Virus record (IMG/VR): IMGVR_UViG_3300037189_006336
Location: 53,101 to 73,100 of that record
Source of the DNA: an uncultured virus (IMG/VR IMGVR_UViG_3300037189_006336)
Lineage: Duplodnaviria > Heunggongvirae > Uroviricota > Caudoviricetes
Reading direction: 5' to 3' (one strand)
Length of the DNA: 20,000 nt
In this document: in pieces, positions 4,345 through 19,469 of the stretch
How positions within the stretch are numbered: the stretch's first letter is position 1
Layout of the letters: every line of letters starts with the position of its first letter
The notes under the pieces: generated by a model
Database searches by the model: none
Told to the model about the DNA's origin: nothing
What the model saw: only the letters and a program-made list of their open reading frames with translations
Program-made: the position numbers and the translations under genes

Positions 4345-5326
4345 CCGGCAAAGATATAAGTTTATCTATTATTGGAACAAGTCTATTTCTAACTTGTAAA
4401 GGTCCATGATCACGAATACTATCTGAAGGATCTTTACTCATTGGTAGATAACATACATGAATATAAGGATATGTTTCTTTATACTTTACCATAGCCGCTT
4501 TACCTGGTTCATCATTATCAAACATTACAAGAATCTTCTTATAGTTTAAACGATAGATTTCCATATCAGCTGCTTTAATCAAAGTGTTTTCAGAATCAGG
4601 AGCTATTATATCTATATTCTTAAGCTTCAGACTTTTAATAGCCATTATATCTTTAAGACTAGATGTTATTAACAAAAACTGATTTAAATTAATTTGATCA
4701 AATCCTTGAATATAATCTTTAACTTTAATAAATTTTTTATCCAAAGTTTTGGGTTGGTAAATTTTATACAAACTCCCATCTTTTCTAAAATATCCATATA
4801 AATAACTACCTCTGATAGTTAGTGTAATAGGACCAGCGTCTGTAGTTTTTTCCATAAGATAACTTTCAAGCGGTCTTACATTATGTTCTGTAAGAAGCTT
4901 TGATCCTATGTTAAACTGAGTCCAGAAATATTGATCTTTAGATGTCCAGGATCTAAACACTACAGATGTCACCTTATATCTTGATGACACTTTAAACTTT
5001 GACATATTATATCCTCCATTATTATGAAGAACAAAGTCATTGTAATTTTCTATAATGATTTCAGATGCTTTATGAAAAGGAACGTTATATAGTTCTTTTA
5101 CAAGATCTACAGCGGATCCTCCTTTACCTGTAGAGAAATCCTTAAATCTATATTGACCACTTGTACAGTAAATAGAAAAACTAGGTGTTCTTTCTTCAGG
5201 ATTAAATATACTTTTAATCTTTACTTCAGAACCATCTAATTTATGTTTCAGTTTACAAAAGTGTTCAAATATCCAAGGAATAGGTATCTGCTTTACATCA
5301 TTTACAAGATTCTTAGTGTTAAACAT
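4316..5326 (-). CDS. DnaG-type phage DNA primase (TOPRIM), divergent
   Basis: ERTPSF...FKDFSTGKGG resembles a cysteine-free zinc-binding domain; FDNDEPG is the TOPRIM DxD motif; KDPSD is the C-terminal motif. Confidence 0.85.
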   Translation of the reverse strand: MFNTKNLVNDVKQIPIPWIFEHFCKLKHKLDGSEVKIKSIFNPEERTPSFSIYCTSGQYRFKDFSTGKGGSAVDLVKELYNVPFHKASEIIIENYNDFVLHNNGGYNMSKFKVSSRYKVTSVVFRSWTSKDQYFWTQFNIGSKLLTEHNVRPLESYLMEKTTDAGPITLTIRGSYLYGYFRKDGSLYKIYQPKTLDKKFIKVKDYIQGFDQINLNQFLLITSSLKDIMAIKSLKLKNIDIIAPDSENTLIKAADMEIYRLNYKKILVMFDNDEPGKAAMVKYKETYPYIHVCYLPMSKDPSDSIRDHGPLQVRNRLVPIIDKLISLPDESKESSEI

Positions 5327-12975: not shown

Positions 12976-14517
12976 TTATCTTATAACTCCACCTTTACTA
13001 TTAATATTATAAATCTTTTTACCATCAAACATAACAGCTTGATTTTTTTGTACATATTTTTCTATAATATCACTCCTAAAGTGATTAAATCTACAACCTT
13101 CAACACCTACAAAGAAAGCTTTTTCTGAATAATAATTACAATTATCTTCAGCATCTGTTATGATGATAGCATTATCATCATTAGACATAATGTGATCTAA
13201 CACTTTGTTAATATTTGTACCACCATGTAGTCCTATAGACGCAATACTAAAAACATTTGGATTTATTTTTTTTACACTGTCATTAAAAACATATATATCT
13301 TTTAATAAATCCATTTGTTGTAATTTGAAAGCAAAAGCTTTACAAAAATCCAACTTGTCAATATTATTACCATTGACATCAGTAACACCACAAGTACCAG
13401 ACATAGATCCAGAAATATCAATATAAATACTAATTTTCCCTATTTTGTTAACCTCTTTGATCTGAACATCTTCGATCATAAACTTTCTTAACATAGGATG
13501 TAAAAGCATATAATCTTCTATACCAGCTACATTATCAGTGTTAAATATATCTTCATACTTAACTTCATCTCTAGATGAAAAATAATTTTTAGATCTATCC
13601 ATGAGTTTTTTAATAGCTTCTTTAAGACTACCCATAGAAAGTCCTATTTTAGCTAAATGTTCTCCTACTTTTTTTAATTCTCCTAGATCAAGTTTTGCGG
13701 CTCCTGATGCTTTGTCAGAATTATTATATAAATCTTCTTGAGTTGGTTCATCCATGATTTCATCTAAAGACTTACAAAGATTTTGAGCGTCTTGTATAGT
13801 TTTATCCATCTGGTCTTTAGATTGTTTATCATCAAACATTTTTTTCATCAGATTTTCCATACCGTCATTATCTCCACTTCCTTTAAGTGAATCCATCATT
13901 TTATCATGTTCATTTGGATCAGTATATTCTAATAAAGTCATTCTAGATATAAAATATTGTAAAACATTTCTTGTGAAAATAGAACTTTTCAGATTACTTG
14001 TTTCAGACATGATTTTACCAACTGGATTATTGGCTTTTTCTATAAATTTATACTGACTATAATTCTTATCAGTACGTTCTTCAAAATTTATACTACTTAT
14101 TTTGTGGTAATACATTTTAAAGATGTCGTTTTTAAGATGTTTCGGAAACTTTCTATAGTTTTCTTTCATCTTTTTACTAAATGCGTCAAAGTCAGGTTTA
14201 GAATCATTACCTGATAAAGCTTTGTAAGACGATGATTTTTGTATACTTTCAAACACGTCTTTCATACTTTTTGGATCATCTAAAAATTTAGAACAGATAT
14301 TATCTAATCTGTCTTCATCTATATAATGCATATATGGTTTAATAAGATCGTTCTTTTTATAAAAACTTACTTTATCAAATAAACCACCTCCAGTCTTGTA
14401 GTGAGAAGTTATCTCACCTTTCTTTACTTTTTCTAAAATTGTATAAGGGTTTTTTAAATCCTTTACATTATTAGTTGTTATTCTTTCTCCTGTTGAGAGA
14501 CTTCTTAAATTAGCCAT
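12976..14517 (-). CDS. VWA-domain protein (ViaA-like partner of MoxR ATPase)
   Basis: C-terminal MIDAS elements YIDISGSM, GGTNI and ITDAED; long helical N-terminal region; adjacent to the MoxR ATPase. Confidence 0.85.
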   Translation of the reverse strand: MANLRSLSTGERITTNNVKDLKNPYTILEKVKKGEITSHYKTGGGLFDKVSFYKKNDLIKPYMHYIDEDRLDNICSKFLDDPKSMKDVFESIQKSSSYKALSGNDSKPDFDAFSKKMKENYRKFPKHLKNDIFKMYYHKISSINFEERTDKNYSQYKFIEKANNPVGKIMSETSNLKSSIFTRNVLQYFISRMTLLEYTDPNEHDKMMDSLKGSGDNDGMENLMKKMFDDKQSKDQMDKTIQDAQNLCKSLDEIMDEPTQEDLYNNSDKASGAAKLDLGELKKVGEHLAKIGLSMGSLKEAIKKLMDRSKNYFSSRDEVKYEDIFNTDNVAGIEDYMLLHPMLRKFMIEDVQIKEVNKIGKISIYIDISGSMSGTCGVTDVNGNNIDKLDFCKAFAFKLQQMDLLKDIYVFNDSVKKINPNVFSIASIGLHGGTNINKVLDHIMSNDDNAIIITDAEDNCNYYSEKAFFVGVEGCRFNHFRSDIIEKYVQKNQAVMFDGKKIYNINSKGGVIR

Positions 14518-14532
14518 ATGTAAATTTGAAAT

Positions 14533-14564
14533 AAAATAAAAAGAGAGGGAAAAATCCCTCTCTT
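14533..14564 (-). terminator. Hairpin/terminator between the AAA+ and VWA genes
   Basis: Perfect 10-bp stem AAGAGAGGGA-N4-TCCCTCTCTT (14541-14564) followed on the minus strand by TTTATTTT. Confidence 0.8.
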
Positions 14565-14577
14565 AATTATCGTTATG

Positions 14578-16017
14578 TTAGAATGGGTATTCTACTTCAG
14601 CTACCTTTATAGCTTCTCCATTAGACATATCACTAGCTAATTCACCCATCATTTCGTCAAAAGATTCTGTAGAATCTTTACGAGCTGGGTGAGAAGATAA
14701 GATAAAATCAATAGCTGTTTCTATCTCGTTTACTTGTATTTCATCCATTATACCACGAGTAGTATATGCATTAATACCAGCTTCTATCTCAGCGATAGCC
14801 AACTCAAGTTGTTCTGTTGTAGTATAAGATGCTAACATTTCTACTTTGCTCATAATAGCTTTTACTTCAGGAGACATCAATTTATTTTGAAGTTCTGAAC
14901 CAGCTGATTGAGAAATCATAATTTGAGCTGTCTTTACAAGAGCTTTATCTACACTGATATTCCAAATAAAAGATATAGCTTTAGCTAATCCAGGAACAAA
15001 AGTTAAAGTTCTATCAGAACTGTGTTGATAACCAACTTCTAAATACTTTTCAAGTTTTTTAGTTGGTACATCTACTGTTGATATTTCTGTTTTATCAGGA
15101 ACAGAAATCTTTATTTTCTCACGGTAGTTACGCGCACCCTTATCAAAATATTTAACTAATTCACCAGCAGATACACGGTTTACTGTCATTTTTAACATAA
15201 ACCTATCCCAAAAAGGACTACCTACTTCTTCTTTTGGTATTTCATTACAAGTAGCTACAAATAGTTTCCATTTACAAGGAATCTTGTGTTTACCGTTAAA
15301 TAAAAACTTCTCGTTCATTACACCCAACATTGCGTTACGGATAGCTGAAGAAGCTTTATCCACCTCATTAATCACTACTATTTCCGCGTCAGCAATAGGA
15401 GTGTTTAAGGTATACTGATTAGAAGTAAATAATTTACCTAAATCAGGTATTCCTTTAATTTCTGATGACTTAGTCCCTTCGTCAGTTTCTAAGATATAAA
15501 TCTTGTTCGCAAAGTCTTCAGCGGTCATATTACCGTCTTTATTTAACCAAGCTTTCGCATATTCTATTATTGTTTTTGTTTTAGCAGTTCCAGGTGCACC
15601 CACTAATAATAATGGCATTCCAGTAGATTCAGCTAAAGCTAACATCTTAAATACTTCTTCTTTATTAATCAAAGAACTGTCAATAACTCTTACTTCTTTT
15701 GCTGTTACTTTACTGGTTGATTTACCTTTTCCTAAGCTTGTAGCCATTTTTCTTAAATTTTTTTGTTTAATAATTTTTTCAACATTGAGATTTCTCCCCA
15801 CTAATTTGAATGATTCTTCTCTAATTACACCACTTGTAGCTCTAGTAGTTTTTTCTATATCTACGTATAATTTGTCTTGATCTACTAAAGTGTAATTATA
15901 TATTGGGTGGACTTGAAATACATCTTTAATAACAAAAAACTTTCCAACTAAACAAGGATTACACCCCCACCCAGCTTCTACAACTTCTACTAAATCACCT
16001 GGTTTAAACTTATTCAT
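14578..16017 (-). CDS. MoxR/RavA-like AAA+ ATPase with N-terminal extension (alternative start at 15747)
   Basis: Walker A GAPGTAKT, Walker B variant VVINEVDKA, RNAMLGVMNE, sensor I ATCNE and FWDRF arginine finger. Confidence 0.85.
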   Translation of the reverse strand: MNKFKPGDLVEVVEAGWGCNPCLVGKFFVIKDVFQVHPIYNYTLVDQDKLYVDIEKTTRATSGVIREESFKLVGRNLNVEKIIKQKNLRKMATSLGKGKSTSKVTAKEVRVIDSSLINKEEVFKMLALAESTGMPLLLVGAPGTAKTKTIIEYAKAWLNKDGNMTAEDFANKIYILETDEGTKSSEIKGIPDLGKLFTSNQYTLNTPIADAEIVVINEVDKASSAIRNAMLGVMNEKFLFNGKHKIPCKWKLFVATCNEIPKEEVGSPFWDRFMLKMTVNRVSAGELVKYFDKGARNYREKIKISVPDKTEISTVDVPTKKLEKYLEVGYQHSSDRTLTFVPGLAKAISFIWNISVDKALVKTAQIMISQSAGSELQNKLMSPEVKAIMSKVEMLASYTTTEQLELAIAEIEAGINAYTTRGIMDEIQVNEIETAIDFILSSHPARKDSTESFDEMMGELASDMSNGEAIKVAEVEYPF

Positions 16018-16018
16018 A

Positions 16019-16408
16019 TTATAAGTTAGCAAACGCATCAGCTCCAGATTTCTCTTCTTCTGATACAGAAACAACTAGTTCAGGAACCGTTATTCTATCT
16101 ATTCCACTAAAATCTATTCCACTAAAACCTGTAAGAGCAGCCATTATTGGTTTTGTTTCTTTTTCTTGTACAGGAACTGGTTCTACTACTTTAGTGTCAT
16201 CCACTATTACAAAAATCTTATTAATTGTTTGAAGATTTACTAAGGCTGGATGTTTTTTGATTGTCATAATTTGACTATCCAAGGCTTCATACTTTTCTTG
16301 AATTGAGCCATAACCCATGTCATCTCTCTTTAACCAAGTTAAACCACTACCAAGATCTGCTTGGATACTACTTACTGTTAACTGTACTTTCGGCAACTGT
16401 TTGTTCAT
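16019..16408 (-). CDS. Hypothetical phage protein
   Basis: 129-aa ORF with low-complexity C-terminus ending ADAFANL. Confidence 0.8.
   Translation of the reverse strand: MNKQLPKVQLTVSSIQADLGSGLTWLKRDDMGYGSIQEKYEALDSQIMTIKKHPALVNLQTINKIFVIVDDTKVVEPVPVQEKETKPIMAALTGFSGIDFSGIDRITVPELVVSVSEEEKSGADAFANL
16098..16127. repeat. 15-bp perfect tandem duplication inside a CDS
   Basis: TCTATTCCACTAAAA twice, encoding FSGID-FSGID. Confidence 0.9.
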
Positions 16409-16427: not shown

Positions 16428-17138
16428 TTAATACCAATTAATTTGAAACTCTGAACCATTCATGTTTTTAATAAGTCTATTGGTTTCGTTAAATATATTA
16501 TTACAATCCCAATCTTTACCAGTGTATCCAGCTGATGCAGGATGATTAGCTTTAAGAACATGATGTTGAGGTCCTATTATTTGCTCAAGTTCTTGAGCTT
16601 TTTTACCTAACAAAATAAAAATTAAACCCGCGTTAGTAAGATTTAACATATCTATAGTGTACATTACAAAATCATTCCATATTCCGTAATGTGTTCCTGG
16701 TTTATCTATCTGACAAGTAAGTGCGCTATTTAATAATAACACACCTTGATTAGCCCAACGCTTTAAATCAGGATCTTGATAAACAGGAAAACCTTGAGCC
16801 ACTGTCCTTTCGATTTCTTTAAAGATTTCTTTAAGACTCGGTTGTGGTTTCATAGATATACCACAAGAGAATCCTATACCATCAGCCACTTCAATTTGAA
16901 AATATGGATCTTGCCCAATGATTACAACTTTTAGATTATCTAATGGACATTCTTCAAACGCTCTAAATACACGTTTGAGAGGAGGTGTAAATCTTTTCCC
17001 TTCTTCTCTGAGATCATAAAGTTGTTTAATAATACTATCAAACTCACTACTTTGAATAAATCCTTTTAGTTTAATAGCCCAACCTGTAGGTTTAAGCTTT
17101 TCTATAAGTTTTTCTTTTATTTCATCGAGATCTATCAT
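16428..17138 (-). CDS. ung: Uracil-DNA glycosylase, family 1
   Basis: KVVIIGQDPY, ADGIGFS, PSL, WANQGVLLLN and HPAS. Confidence 0.95.
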   Translation of the reverse strand: MIDLDEIKEKLIEKLKPTGWAIKLKGFIQSSEFDSIIKQLYDLREEGKRFTPPLKRVFRAFEECPLDNLKVVIIGQDPYFQIEVADGIGFSCGISMKPQPSLKEIFKEIERTVAQGFPVYQDPDLKRWANQGVLLLNSALTCQIDKPGTHYGIWNDFVMYTIDMLNLTNAGLIFILLGKKAQELEQIIGPQHHVLKANHPASAGYTGKDWDCNNIFNETNRLIKNMNGSEFQINWY

Positions 17139-17465: not shown

Positions 17466-17820
17466 TAGCTTGTATAGCTAGAGCTAGTTCTTCTTTAGAA
17501 CACTCACCAAAGCTCTTTACGAGGAAGTATTCTTTACCGGATACTTCCCGCGCTATACAAAGTCCCGCTTTATCTTTAACCATCACCTTTAAATCTTCTA
17601 CAAGAATACCGGTGTGTAAAGACAACGTTTTTAACATAGCGTGTATCTTAGCTAACTGAGGAAGTGTACCATCATCATGTGTAGCTTCAAAAAAAAACTC
17701 AATAATCTGACCCTCTTCTACTTTAGATAAGAATAATTCAAATTGTTTAGAAAGAGCTAAAGTAGAATACTTTAGCTTTCCTTCTTTCTTTATCATTTTT
17801 CCATTAAAATGTCCTGTCAT
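17425..17820 (-). CDS. NinB/Orf-like recombination accessory protein (tentative)
   Basis: Pattern TLPQLAKIHAML...TG...EDLKVMVK...KSFGECSKEELALAIQAI resembles the NinB/DUF1367 architecture. Confidence 0.5.
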   Translation of the reverse strand: MTGHFNGKMIKKEGKLKYSTLALSKQFELFLSKVEEGQIIEFFFEATHDDGTLPQLAKIHAMLKTLSLHTGILVEDLKVMVKDKAGLCIAREVSGKEYFLVKSFGECSKEELALAIQAIINLGTEINCPLG

Positions 17821-18920
17821 AGATTAAAATACTTTATTTTACTTTGATCAAAGTCTTTCAGCGCTTCTTTTACCCATATCTCATCTACAGTATTTTTATA
17901 ACATAATATGTGTATAATAGCTGTTTCTTTTGGATTAAGTCTGAGGGCGCGCCCCAGTCGTTGTGAAACTTTACGTTCATTACCATAAGCGTGTAATATA
18001 ATACATACACTAAGATTAGGAATATTAACACCTTCGCTTATTTGTAACACACAAGAAGCTTGTTGTATATCTCCTCTTTTAAACTTATCTAGATTATCTT
18101 GACTATCTGGATTATTAGAATGAATAGAGTGAGAACACATCTCATCAGCTTGTTCTTGTGTATTACAGAATATAAGACACTTTTCATCTATATGAAGAGC
18201 TAACTTTTTAGCGTATCTTGCTTTAGACGGCATATTCATCAGACTCTTCATACGCATCACTGACGCTATCTGTTTGTCTTTTTTACCTACAGCTTCATCA
18301 ACTCGATTTGTCCAGTAGTTGTAGTCATCTATTTCAGATTTATAAAAGCTTCCACCATTTTTAGTATTCACTTTTATTGTTTTATCAAAAGACAATGATA
18401 GATTGTGTACTATGATTCTATAATCATTAAGTATTTCATCTTCTACAGCGTTATCTGTTATATAAATAAACTTTACTGGACATACACTAGTAATCATCTT
18501 ACTCTTTTCACTGTTAGGATATCTTGGCGGAGTACCTGTTAATCCTAATGTTCTTCCTGTATAGAAGCTAAGAAATCCTAAATGTGAATATAACAAGTTA
18601 TGTACTTCATCAAAGATTACAATACTGTAATCATTAGGATTCTTTTTATTAAGAGATATATAAGTGACATACTCTACAAGATCCATTACAGGTTTGTGTA
18701 TATTATGCTTTATAGCTTCATCTTTCCAAGTAGTAAATATAGACTTCTTAGGGCCTACTATTAACACTTTCTTTTTAATTTTTCCTTCAAGATAAAACTT
18801 TTGTAAATAACGTAATCCTATAAGTGTCTTACCAACCCCCATTGATACAGCCAATGTTACACGAGGATTATTTATCGCTATCTGTAAAGCGTCATCTTGG
18901 ATTTGTTGTCGTTTATCCAT
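17817..18920 (-). CDS. Superfamily 2 DExH helicase (ResIII/UvsW-like)
   Basis: Q motif RQQIQ, SMGVGKT, DEVH, LTGT, EGVNIP and QRLGRALR. Confidence 0.92.
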   Translation of the reverse strand: MDKRQQIQDDALQIAINNPRVTLAVSMGVGKTLIGLRYLQKFYLEGKIKKKVLIVGPKKSIFTTWKDEAIKHNIHKPVMDLVEYVTYISLNKKNPNDYSIVIFDEVHNLLYSHLGFLSFYTGRTLGLTGTPPRYPNSEKSKMITSVCPVKFIYITDNAVEDEILNDYRIIVHNLSLSFDKTIKVNTKNGGSFYKSEIDDYNYWTNRVDEAVGKKDKQIASVMRMKSLMNMPSKARYAKKLALHIDEKCLIFCNTQEQADEMCSHSIHSNNPDSQDNLDKFKRGDIQQASCVLQISEGVNIPNLSVCIILHAYGNERKVSQRLGRALRLNPKETAIIHILCYKNTVDEIWVKEALKDFDQSKIKYFNL

Positions 18921-18923
18921 ATT

Positions 18924-18951
18924 AAAAAAATTAGCTGTTCTGGTACAGCTA
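18924..18951 (-). terminator. Terminator-like hairpin immediately before the helicase start
   Basis: Minus strand TAGCTGT-ACCAGA-ACAGCTA-A-TTTTTTT, then AAT-ATG. Confidence 0.6.
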
Positions 18952-19099
18952 GACCCCCCTGATCATCTTATTACTGAGACTAGTCAAAACAACTCAGTTA
19001 TGTTGCAAGTAAATATCAGATGAACTATGTCTAAACCAACCACGAGGCCATGGTACAAGGTAAAATGCTGCAAACTTCTGAGCGTGGCTAATATGTTTA
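18924..19099 (-). ncRNA. Candidate structured non-coding RNA or leader element
   Basis: About 42% GC over 18931-19090 by hand count, no credible ORF, several nested stems and a terminal hairpin followed by T7. Confidence 0.5.
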
Positions 19100-19324
19100 T
19101 TAATCTTCAGGTATTTTACTTTGTATAATAATAGATATAAAAAATAACATTATTAAACTCAATAATACCCATAAAAAAATAATTTTTATACTACTGATTA
19201 TATAAAATAATTGAATCAATAGTTTGTAAGATATGTAAATTAGTAGTAAAATTGATATTAGACAAAAAAACAGAAAAGAAAATGTCATTATAACATTACA
19301 TATTAGATTTAGAATCTTTTTCAT
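19100..19324 (-). CDS. Small two-TM membrane protein
   Basis: Likely ATG at 19324 (MKKILNLICNV...); almost entirely hydrophobic. Confidence 0.6.
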   Translation of the reverse strand: MKKILNLICNVIMTFSFLFFCLISILLLIYISYKLLIQLFYIISSIKIIFLWVLLSLIMLFFISIIIQSKIPED

Positions 19325-19334
19325 AATTAATAGT

Positions 19335-19469
19335 TTAGTTAAACCATTTTTGTGTGTATTTACCACAAAGACAAACCCAACCATCAGTTGTAGCTGTAAG
19401 TATACCTTCGTTTTTGTTAGTGTATTCTACAGTTTCTCCTTCACTACGTTTTAACGTGGCCGCGTTTCG
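19335..19469 (-). pseudogene. Start-less gene remnant with a WVCxCG motif
   Basis: Open frame RNAATLKRSEGETVEYTNKNEGILTATTDGWVCLCGKYTQKWFN* preceded by in-frame TAG AGA TAT TGA TAG, with no ATG. Confidence 0.45.

Follow-up and report, generated by a model that had tools for sequence, protein, structure and literature searches.

The 179-nt gap that lies in front of an SF2 helicase gene in this DNA almost certainly encodes a member of a real family of structured RNAs, judging from a comparison of 45 related sequences. The RNA family is new; the kind of object, an orphan structured phage RNA, is already known. An initial annotation, made on the window (the whole stretch of 20,000 nucleotides analysed here, the terminal part of a 73.1-kb viral record), had proposed a novel structured RNA ending in a terminator, and this proposal holds: the comparison gives a conserved family, with covariation and pseudoknots, outside Rfam 15. 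At the level of sequence comparison the object is real and beyond chance, and the proof is covariation; most of the structure originally drawn is wrong.

The gap occupies window positions 18921-19099 on the minus strand, between the stop codon of ORF 19100-19384(-) and the ATG of the helicase at 18920. No other gap between listed ORFs is as long, as had been noted; the GC content of this one, put at about 42%, measures 38%. The helicase gene (17817-18920, minus strand; Pfam domains Helicase_C and ResIII) starts with the AUG at 18918-18920, which the three nucleotides AAU separate from a run of seven U, and which has no Shine-Dalgarno sequence ahead of it. Relatives of this helicase number in the thousands in a protein search, and the cultured phages nearest by helicase, with an identity of at most 30%, infect Flavobacterium, Bacteroides and Cellulophaga. 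Together, these helicase relatives and the missing Shine-Dalgarno sequence suggest that the hosts of the phages that carry the RNA are Bacteroidota. Only stop-to-stop frames of at most 51 amino acids lie inside or across the gap, none of them conserved as a frame, and the alignments of its homologues contain insertions and deletions that are not multiples of three.

Some features of the surroundings deserve mention in their own right. ORF 19100-19384(-), of 94 codons, is very hydrophobic and sits in DNA of 17-22% GC upstream of the RNA; it has no Pfam match and no blastp match in eight other phage genomes, and might be not a gene but AT-rich non-coding DNA or a promoter region. Nearby, at 19128 and 19113, lie the ends of two weak sigma-70-like matches. 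On the other side, a MoxR-type AAA ATPase (bpMoxR, E 3e-25) and, after it, a protein of 513 aa for which Pfam has no match occupy window positions 12976-16074(-), in one operon with the helicase and a homologue of uracil-DNA glycosylase (16428-17138).

Homologues were collected from several sources. Eighty loci were fetched around relatives of the helicase; against these, blastn aligns the gap with 72-86% identity over 136-148 nt, at loci where the helicase proteins themselves are only 57-61% identical. Scans with a core pattern returned 22 and 24 viral contigs and 29 metagenome contigs, and a relaxed core pattern returned 37 viral contigs, which include 14 new variants. The final set contains 45 distinct sequences, drawn from contigs of uncultured phages and freshwater metagenomes and aligned with covariance model R1 (alignment A5); the shortened copies L063/L088, L146, L148 and L150 and identical duplicates were excluded from the alignments. 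Two properties of this set must be kept in mind: the search patterns fixed 20-22 core positions, so that the invariance of the core is partly there by construction, and the 45 sequences are kin, so that counts of alignment cells overstate the number of independent events. Model R1 matches the window at 18920-19096(-) with 139 bits (E 3e-35). It finds no match in the cultured Flavobacterium phage FpV21, and a blastn comparison of 1.8 kb with 50,697 phage records gave none either. A scan for the exact core across 185,579 bacterial and archaeal species, each represented by one genome, gave a single match, in a Vicinamibacteria MAG, which was rejected: the rest of the motif is missing there, and such a frequency is about that estimated for chance.

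The fold rests on four helices, P1', P2, P3 and P5, and on a first knot. Taken jointly over the 45 sequences, these have 92.8% of their cells paired, against 73.4% in shuffled alignments, and their covariation score is 0.513 against 0.148, a value reached by none of 500 shuffles: the covariation among homologues that the initial annotation had asked for is strong. As a control of register, partners slid by 1-3 columns pair in 34-53%. P2, a 5-bp hairpin, is 99.6% paired, with both-side changes in three of its five pairs; P3, a long-range stem of 8 bp, is 97.8% paired, with both-side changes in seven of eight. P1' is a weaker helix of 3 bp that closes the P2 domain, and its outer pair is AU in 17 copies, GU in 8, CG in 7, GC in 2-3, and unpaired in 10 of the 45. 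According to a script search, the loop motif C-[C/G]-[A/U]-G-A is enclosed by a P5 hairpin in all 45 copies, with at least five pairs in 41 and with stem sequences that vary. All six P5 pairs have both-side changes; the pairing count gives this helix only 75%, since one class is shifted by a column in the model alignment. Finally, the first knot contains U.G pairs in 37 of the 45 sequences and P2 in 17, pairs that would read A.C on the opposite strand; this assigns the fold to the strand on which the flanking genes lie.

Table 1. Elements of the RNA in the window, listed from the 5' end of the module, with the evidence for each.
Element	Window positions	Strand	Evidence or remark
Whole RNA module, H1 5' strand through U-run, about 160 nt	18924..19083	-	Limits set by conserved helices and, in L113, by flanking tRNAs that leave 150 nt
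H1a 5' strand CUCAG, partner CUGAG at 18993-18997	19078..19082	-	Compensatory changes; duplex test
H1b 5' strand UUGCAG, partner CUUGCAA at 19003-19009	19068..19073	-	Duplex prediction joins both segments; relatives by eye
5' hairpin domain: P1' (ACC/GGU), internal loop UUGU, P2 (ACCAU/GUGGU), loop GGCCUC	19035..19061	-	Covariation
Single-stranded joiner UUAGACAUA	19026..19034	-	Near-invariant; conservation partly imposed by the relaxed search pattern
P3 5' strand GUUCAUCU (the UCAUCU/AGAUGA stem)	19018..19025	-	Covariation
3' strands of H1b and H1a with AUAA bulge, inside P3	18993..19009	-	Covariation; duplex test
Variable segment between H1 and P3, holding CUCAGU	18969..18992	-	Length and sequence vary; local stem not conserved
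P3 3' strand AGAUGAUC	18961..18968	-	Covariation
G-run GGGGGG: G1-G4 with P2-loop CCUC (19044-19047), G5-G6 with P5-loop CC (18942-18943)	18954..18959	-	Pairable in 45/45
P5 hairpin UAGCUGU-ACCAGA-ACAGCUA	18932..18951	-	Terminator-like call; loop motif in 45/45
U7 run	18924..18930	-	Followed by AAU and the helicase AUG

Among the stems originally drawn, UCAUCU/AGAUGA, here P3, and the terminal hairpin, here P5, are supported. Three others are not, even though every motif quoted is present at the place given for it: the stem UAGCCACG/CGUGGUUG that was to close a first domain, UAGAC/GUCUA and ACUGAG/CUCAGU find no comparative support on the 45 homologues. These three are 51.4% paired in both the real and the shuffled alignments, with a covariation score of 0.115 against 0.121, and the columns of ACUGAG/CUCAGU pair in 43%. 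A closing stem ACCUU/GGGGU proposed by RNAalifold was also rejected: it is broken by the G-run variants GGGGCG and GGUGGG, both of which are explained by the loop pairings described below.

The energy of the single sequence tells another story. Folded alone, the gap reaches a minimum free energy of -33.9 kcal/mol, whereas 200 shuffles average -37.6 (z +0.96); in 168 of them the fold is as stable as the native one or more so, and the centroid structure of the gap keeps only the terminal hairpin. The initial annotation had named folding no better than shuffled controls as a ground for giving up the idea, and by that measure the idea would fail. We set this thermodynamic measure aside, since the fold that the comparison supports is AU-rich and contains pseudoknots.

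Two kinds of crossing interaction complete the fold. The first is a clamp, H1, in which the 5' leader pairs with a segment enclosed by P3; H1 and P3 cross, and form a pseudoknot. The two parts that make up H1 in the window, H1a and H1b, are given in Table 1. Most relatives have CCCAG/CUGGG and AUGCU/AGCAU instead, and L114 has UCCAG/CUGGA. By eye, other lineages have unrelated helices in the same place, for instance CAUGGCUA/UAGCCAUG, GCAAAGCG/CGCUUUGC or ACCAAG/CUUGGU, and the counterparts of H1b in relatives are AUGCU/AGCAU or GUGUUU/AAACAU. On alignment A4, which was not tuned for H1, both-side changes occur in all six pairs of H1a and 80.5% of its cells are paired. The duplex energy between leader and centre, compared to 300 shuffled leaders, has a mean z of -2.29, with p<=0.05 in 24 of 35 cases. 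In one copy, L160, H1 and the whole centre are missing and P3 is closed by a loop of 5 nt, which leaves a minimal core; the minimal form of the RNA is about 100 nt long.

The second kind of crossing involves the G-run that follows P3. In the first knot, four bases of the P2 loop pair with G1-G4 of the run: the pairing is possible in 45 of 45 sequences, reaches 100% in the pairing count, and takes the states CCUC/GGGG (36 copies), CACC/GGUG (6), CCUC/GAGG (2) and CAUC/GGUG (1). In the second knot, again possible in 45 of 45, the partners of G5-G6 are the two bases that open the P5 loop motif, the pairing being GG/CC in 32 copies and CG/CG in 13. The CG state of the second knot accompanies three different first-knot states and is thus not restricted to one lineage.

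P5 has a double part to play, as it belongs to the core and also looks like the end of a transcript. An intrinsic terminator is predicted from the sequence at 18951-18932(-), with seven pairs followed by AUUUUUUU; this is the UAGCUGU/ACAGCUA hairpin with its U7 that had been identified at the outset, and it does end 3 nt before the AUG. Terminator-like sites number two in the 900 nt scanned, against 0.3 expected. Within the family, at least five U are found among the 10 nt after P5 in 32 of the 36 copies that have no tRNA-type sequence after them, against none of the nine that do (1-2 U). By eye, two of the four remaining U-poor copies have a separate strong hairpin with a U-run. RNase P is known to cut at the 5' end of tRNAs. 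Our inference is that the family would always have a route to a 3' end just past P5, either a terminator or the cutting of the next tRNA by RNase P. The 5' end is a different matter: in most copies H1 starts 5-15 nt past an upstream stop codon, which leaves no room for a promoter, so that processing, or a promoter inside the upstream ORF, would be needed. In three copies a TATAAAT-like box was seen, by eye, just 5' of H1.

The genomic positions of the RNA are varied. In a group of phages of about 125 kb, the usual layout is a small ORF ending in ...NPFDNTVQRVFD that abuts the ATG of the helicase, and the RNA is inserted exactly between these two genes in a subset of the group. Model R1 finds it at 8 of 79 related helicase loci and in none of five complete relatives; in relatives that have no RNA module, a plain hairpin does the job at the boundary. 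Elsewhere, five class-2 loci have the RNA after an ORF that ends in ...DNYFI(N/D)EILD. At L113, L130, L135, L141 and L149, ARAGORN predicts tRNA genes next to the RNA; in L113 both Rfam and ARAGORN place tRNAs on its two sides. The window copy lies outside any tRNA cluster. In nine of nine carrier records tested the RNA is single-copy. It lies on the strand of its neighbours.

The carriers themselves have little in common. A phage of 124.6 kb shares 1-3 ORFs with four carriers of 48-62 kb and 12 with a carrier of 100.7 kb, against 71-130 with relatives that have no RNA. Comparison of six carrier and three non-carrier genomes gave no co-occurring phage protein and no ORF common to all carriers, and the only ORFs restricted to carriers are large ones of no known type, in the four records of 48-62 kb. 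Even between related phages the position shifts: the copies G007:C1:55887-56053 and G013:C1:13999-14155 lie on opposite sides of the same three-gene block, with flanking proteins 39-81% identical, and 39-64% identical across the block. To judge from these arrangements, the RNA is a movable module that passes between genomic sites and unrelated phages.

No RNA class covered by Rfam 15 or ARAGORN accounts for it, in agreement with the initial annotation, which recognised no tRNA, ribozyme or riboswitch. In the whole window, Rfam 15 at gathering thresholds gives no match and ARAGORN calls no tRNA or tmRNA. At E<=10, positions 18800-19250 match three microRNA models only, with 15-17 bits for thresholds of 58-90. 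Rfam applied to five diverse members returns only flanking tRNAs and one chance match of 19 bits, and in the 15 kb around two other copies it gives no match; where tRNAs are called, they flank the RNA and never overlap its core.

Three groups of phage RNAs nevertheless invite comparison. RNAC and RNAD of phage T4 (species 1 and 2) are described, in the portions of PMC3014915 and PMC9697503 that deal with them, as small RNAs of the T4 tRNA region, transcribed with tRNA genes or beside them, whose biological role is unknown. The present RNA is likewise small, and several of its copies lie flush against tRNAs; unlike them, in a comparison by published description only, it is often found outside tRNA arrays, with its own predicted terminator there, and its covariation-supported double-knot fold is a further difference. 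GOLLD and ROOL appear in sections of bioRxiv 10.1101/2024.12.08.627333 as orphan, elaborately pseudoknotted RNAs of phages and prophages, often near tRNA islands and of unknown function, and many GOLLD members exceed 800 nt. Orphan and pseudoknotted near tRNA genes like these two, the present RNA is far smaller than either, at 130-180 nt, and has no Rfam match. The likeness is one of niche: there is no evidence of homology to T4 RNAC/RNAD, GOLLD or ROOL. Lastly, Fremin, Bhatt and Kyrpides (2023) report, in PMC10690425, 10,006 candidate structured RNAs from public viral sequence collections, and the present family may be among them; in the part of the PMC10690425 supplements that was searched, the core strings of the family are absent, as are six carrier sample numbers from file 4. 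Full-text literature searches found no description of the motif.

What could such a module do? We lean, tentatively and at just short of an even chance, towards a self-contained gene for a stable RNA, one whose knotted core would act on a host factor or a small molecule. The grounds for this reading are that the unit moves as a whole, has its own signal for a 3' end, tolerates any neighbours, tRNAs included, and has no phage-encoded partner. The window module is one member of an uncatalogued family of pseudoknotted RNAs of about 130-180 nt, carried by uncultured freshwater phages with probably Bacteroidota hosts. On this reading its 5' end would come from a nearby promoter or from processing, and its 3' end from P5 and the U-run acting as an intrinsic terminator or, in tRNA arrays, from RNase P cutting of the next tRNA. 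The released RNA would act in trans, its invariant knotted core contacting the host factor or small molecule, and the helicase of the window would be expressed by read-through of the weak terminator and have the A/U-rich tail for a leader. As carriers share almost no proteins, a host target or an autonomous activity is indicated rather than a phage-encoded partner. The suggestion of a phage small RNA, made at the outset beside that of an attenuator, suits these data better; its further part, a decoy or anti-defence role, is conjecture. We regard as improbable, for instance, a free and abundant aptamer, deprived of any switch and swapped among unrelated phages, that would soak up a host small molecule or protein as an anti-defence sponge. 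Such an aptamer might be expressed from terminator-ended units or from tRNA arrays, with an immune signalling nucleotide as an example of ligand, details that we hold to be just as doubtful.

The RNA could instead act in cis, as a leader: either a riboswitch-like aptamer or attenuator whose P5 and U-run gate the downstream gene, or an RNA that modifies the polymerase, as the put RNA of phage HK022 modifies the polymerase that transcribes it. We think this unlikely, though it has real attractions. An invariant knotted core followed by a hairpin and a U-run just before a gene is reminiscent of a riboswitch with an intrinsic-terminator platform, the core resembling an aptamer and P5 being both core and terminator-like. 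The next gene is about 0-16 nt away in most non-tRNA copies, the end of the model lies at most 1 nt from the next start in 13 of 33 contexts, and in most window-type copies the U-tail meets the ATG directly, an arrangement that would equally suit a cis-acting leader. At several class-2 loci, moreover, the RNA comes directly after an ORF and ahead of the tRNA genes.

However, the consistent function of downstream genes expected of a riboswitch or an attenuator was not found: the helicase, ORFs with signal peptides, other small ORFs or tRNAs follow the RNA, and these share no function. Unlike in riboswitches, the hairpin belongs to the conserved core, and inspection of the alignments by eye revealed no conserved antiterminator that competes with P5, the alternative stems that had been proposed failing as well. 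The sequences UGUACCA, CUCAG and UUGCA do each occur twice in the gap, as had been observed, but conservation is lacking for the alternative pairings that these repeats were thought to allow: P5 has another sequence in all 13 copies of the GGGGCG/CGAGA type, and the duplicated UGUACCA is absent wherever P5 differs. The nine copies in a tRNA context have no U-run, and most relatives with the same operon dispense with the module, whose position shifts between related phages. An attenuator controlling the helicase operon, as first suggested, therefore fits poorly, with unrelated genes downstream, tRNA-flanked copies that have no U-run, and 71 of 79 helicase loci without the RNA.

Another unlikely but respectable contender is that the fold only defines or protects the ends of transcripts, by keeping exonucleases out and by insulating cistrons or tRNA precursors, with no role in trans. 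The module does sit always at gene boundaries, often right after a stop codon or against a tRNA, and is then followed by a U-run or a tRNA; its leader clamp and its ring-like knot topology would be compatible with resistance to nucleases. Yet about 45 invariant or near-invariant positions that are unpaired or tertiary, a figure inflated by the search patterns, exceed what stability by itself should require, and the plain hairpin of RNA-less relatives suffices at the same boundary.

The double-pseudoknot core with its invariant unpaired nucleotides, its presence in tRNA arrays and its mobility also bring to mind a ribozyme, self-cleaving or other, that would process polycistronic or tRNA-array transcripts. 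This has a low probability: neither the window nor the five diverse members match an Rfam 15 ribozyme (hammerhead, twister, HDV-like, pistol, hatchet and glmS among the self-cleaving ones, pseudoknotted ribozymes being able to escape such models), no conserved candidate cleavage site was recognised, and RNase P and terminators already account for the 3' ends. It is most improbable that there is no functional RNA at all and that the element is a DNA-level site, such as an origin or a protein-binding site, or a neutral mobile remnant: it does adjoin replication genes in the window phage and is sporadically distributed, but compensatory changes preserve Watson-Crick and G.U pairing for a single strand, in long-range and loop pairings too, and copies occur inside tRNA arrays.

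Orphan structured phage RNAs such as T4 RNAC/RNAD, GOLLD and ROOL are a long-standing puzzle, and the stable RNA that we propose would offer a testable object for the role of small folded phage RNAs at gene boundaries and in tRNA arrays. Its fold is well constrained, with one G-rich strand that knots two hairpin loops together, and its minimal form is small enough for probing, crystallography and cryo-EM. For annotation, the lesson is that an apparent terminator in front of a helicase is a piece of a larger RNA gene.

A few observations concern the neighbourhoods of other copies. Beside class-2 copies there are odd tRNAs (L113 265-377 and 528-624; L149 523-613): ARAGORN labels them 'tRNA-???', with four-base anticodons, and Rfam gives a tRNA match of 113 nt beside a class-2 copy. 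In G007 (L196, G007:C1:51000-59000, at about 4626-4886), neither ARAGORN nor Rfam calls a tRNA in the surrounding 8 kb; by eye, a tRNA-Leu-like 5' part is seemingly split there by an insert of about 75 nt that carries a T-arm-like stretch of its own.

The junction between the ...NPFDNTVQRVFD ORF and the helicase (loci L005-L083) is a hot spot for insertions. In many loci nothing separates the two genes; other inserts found at this place reach about 790 nt free of any 60-codon ORF (L024, L066, L041). The three copies with the TATAAAT-like box are L169, L174 and L188, and between their U-run and the next ATG they contain, again by eye, two, one and three tandem units of 19 nt (UUGUUCUAAAAUCAAACAA-like), respectively.
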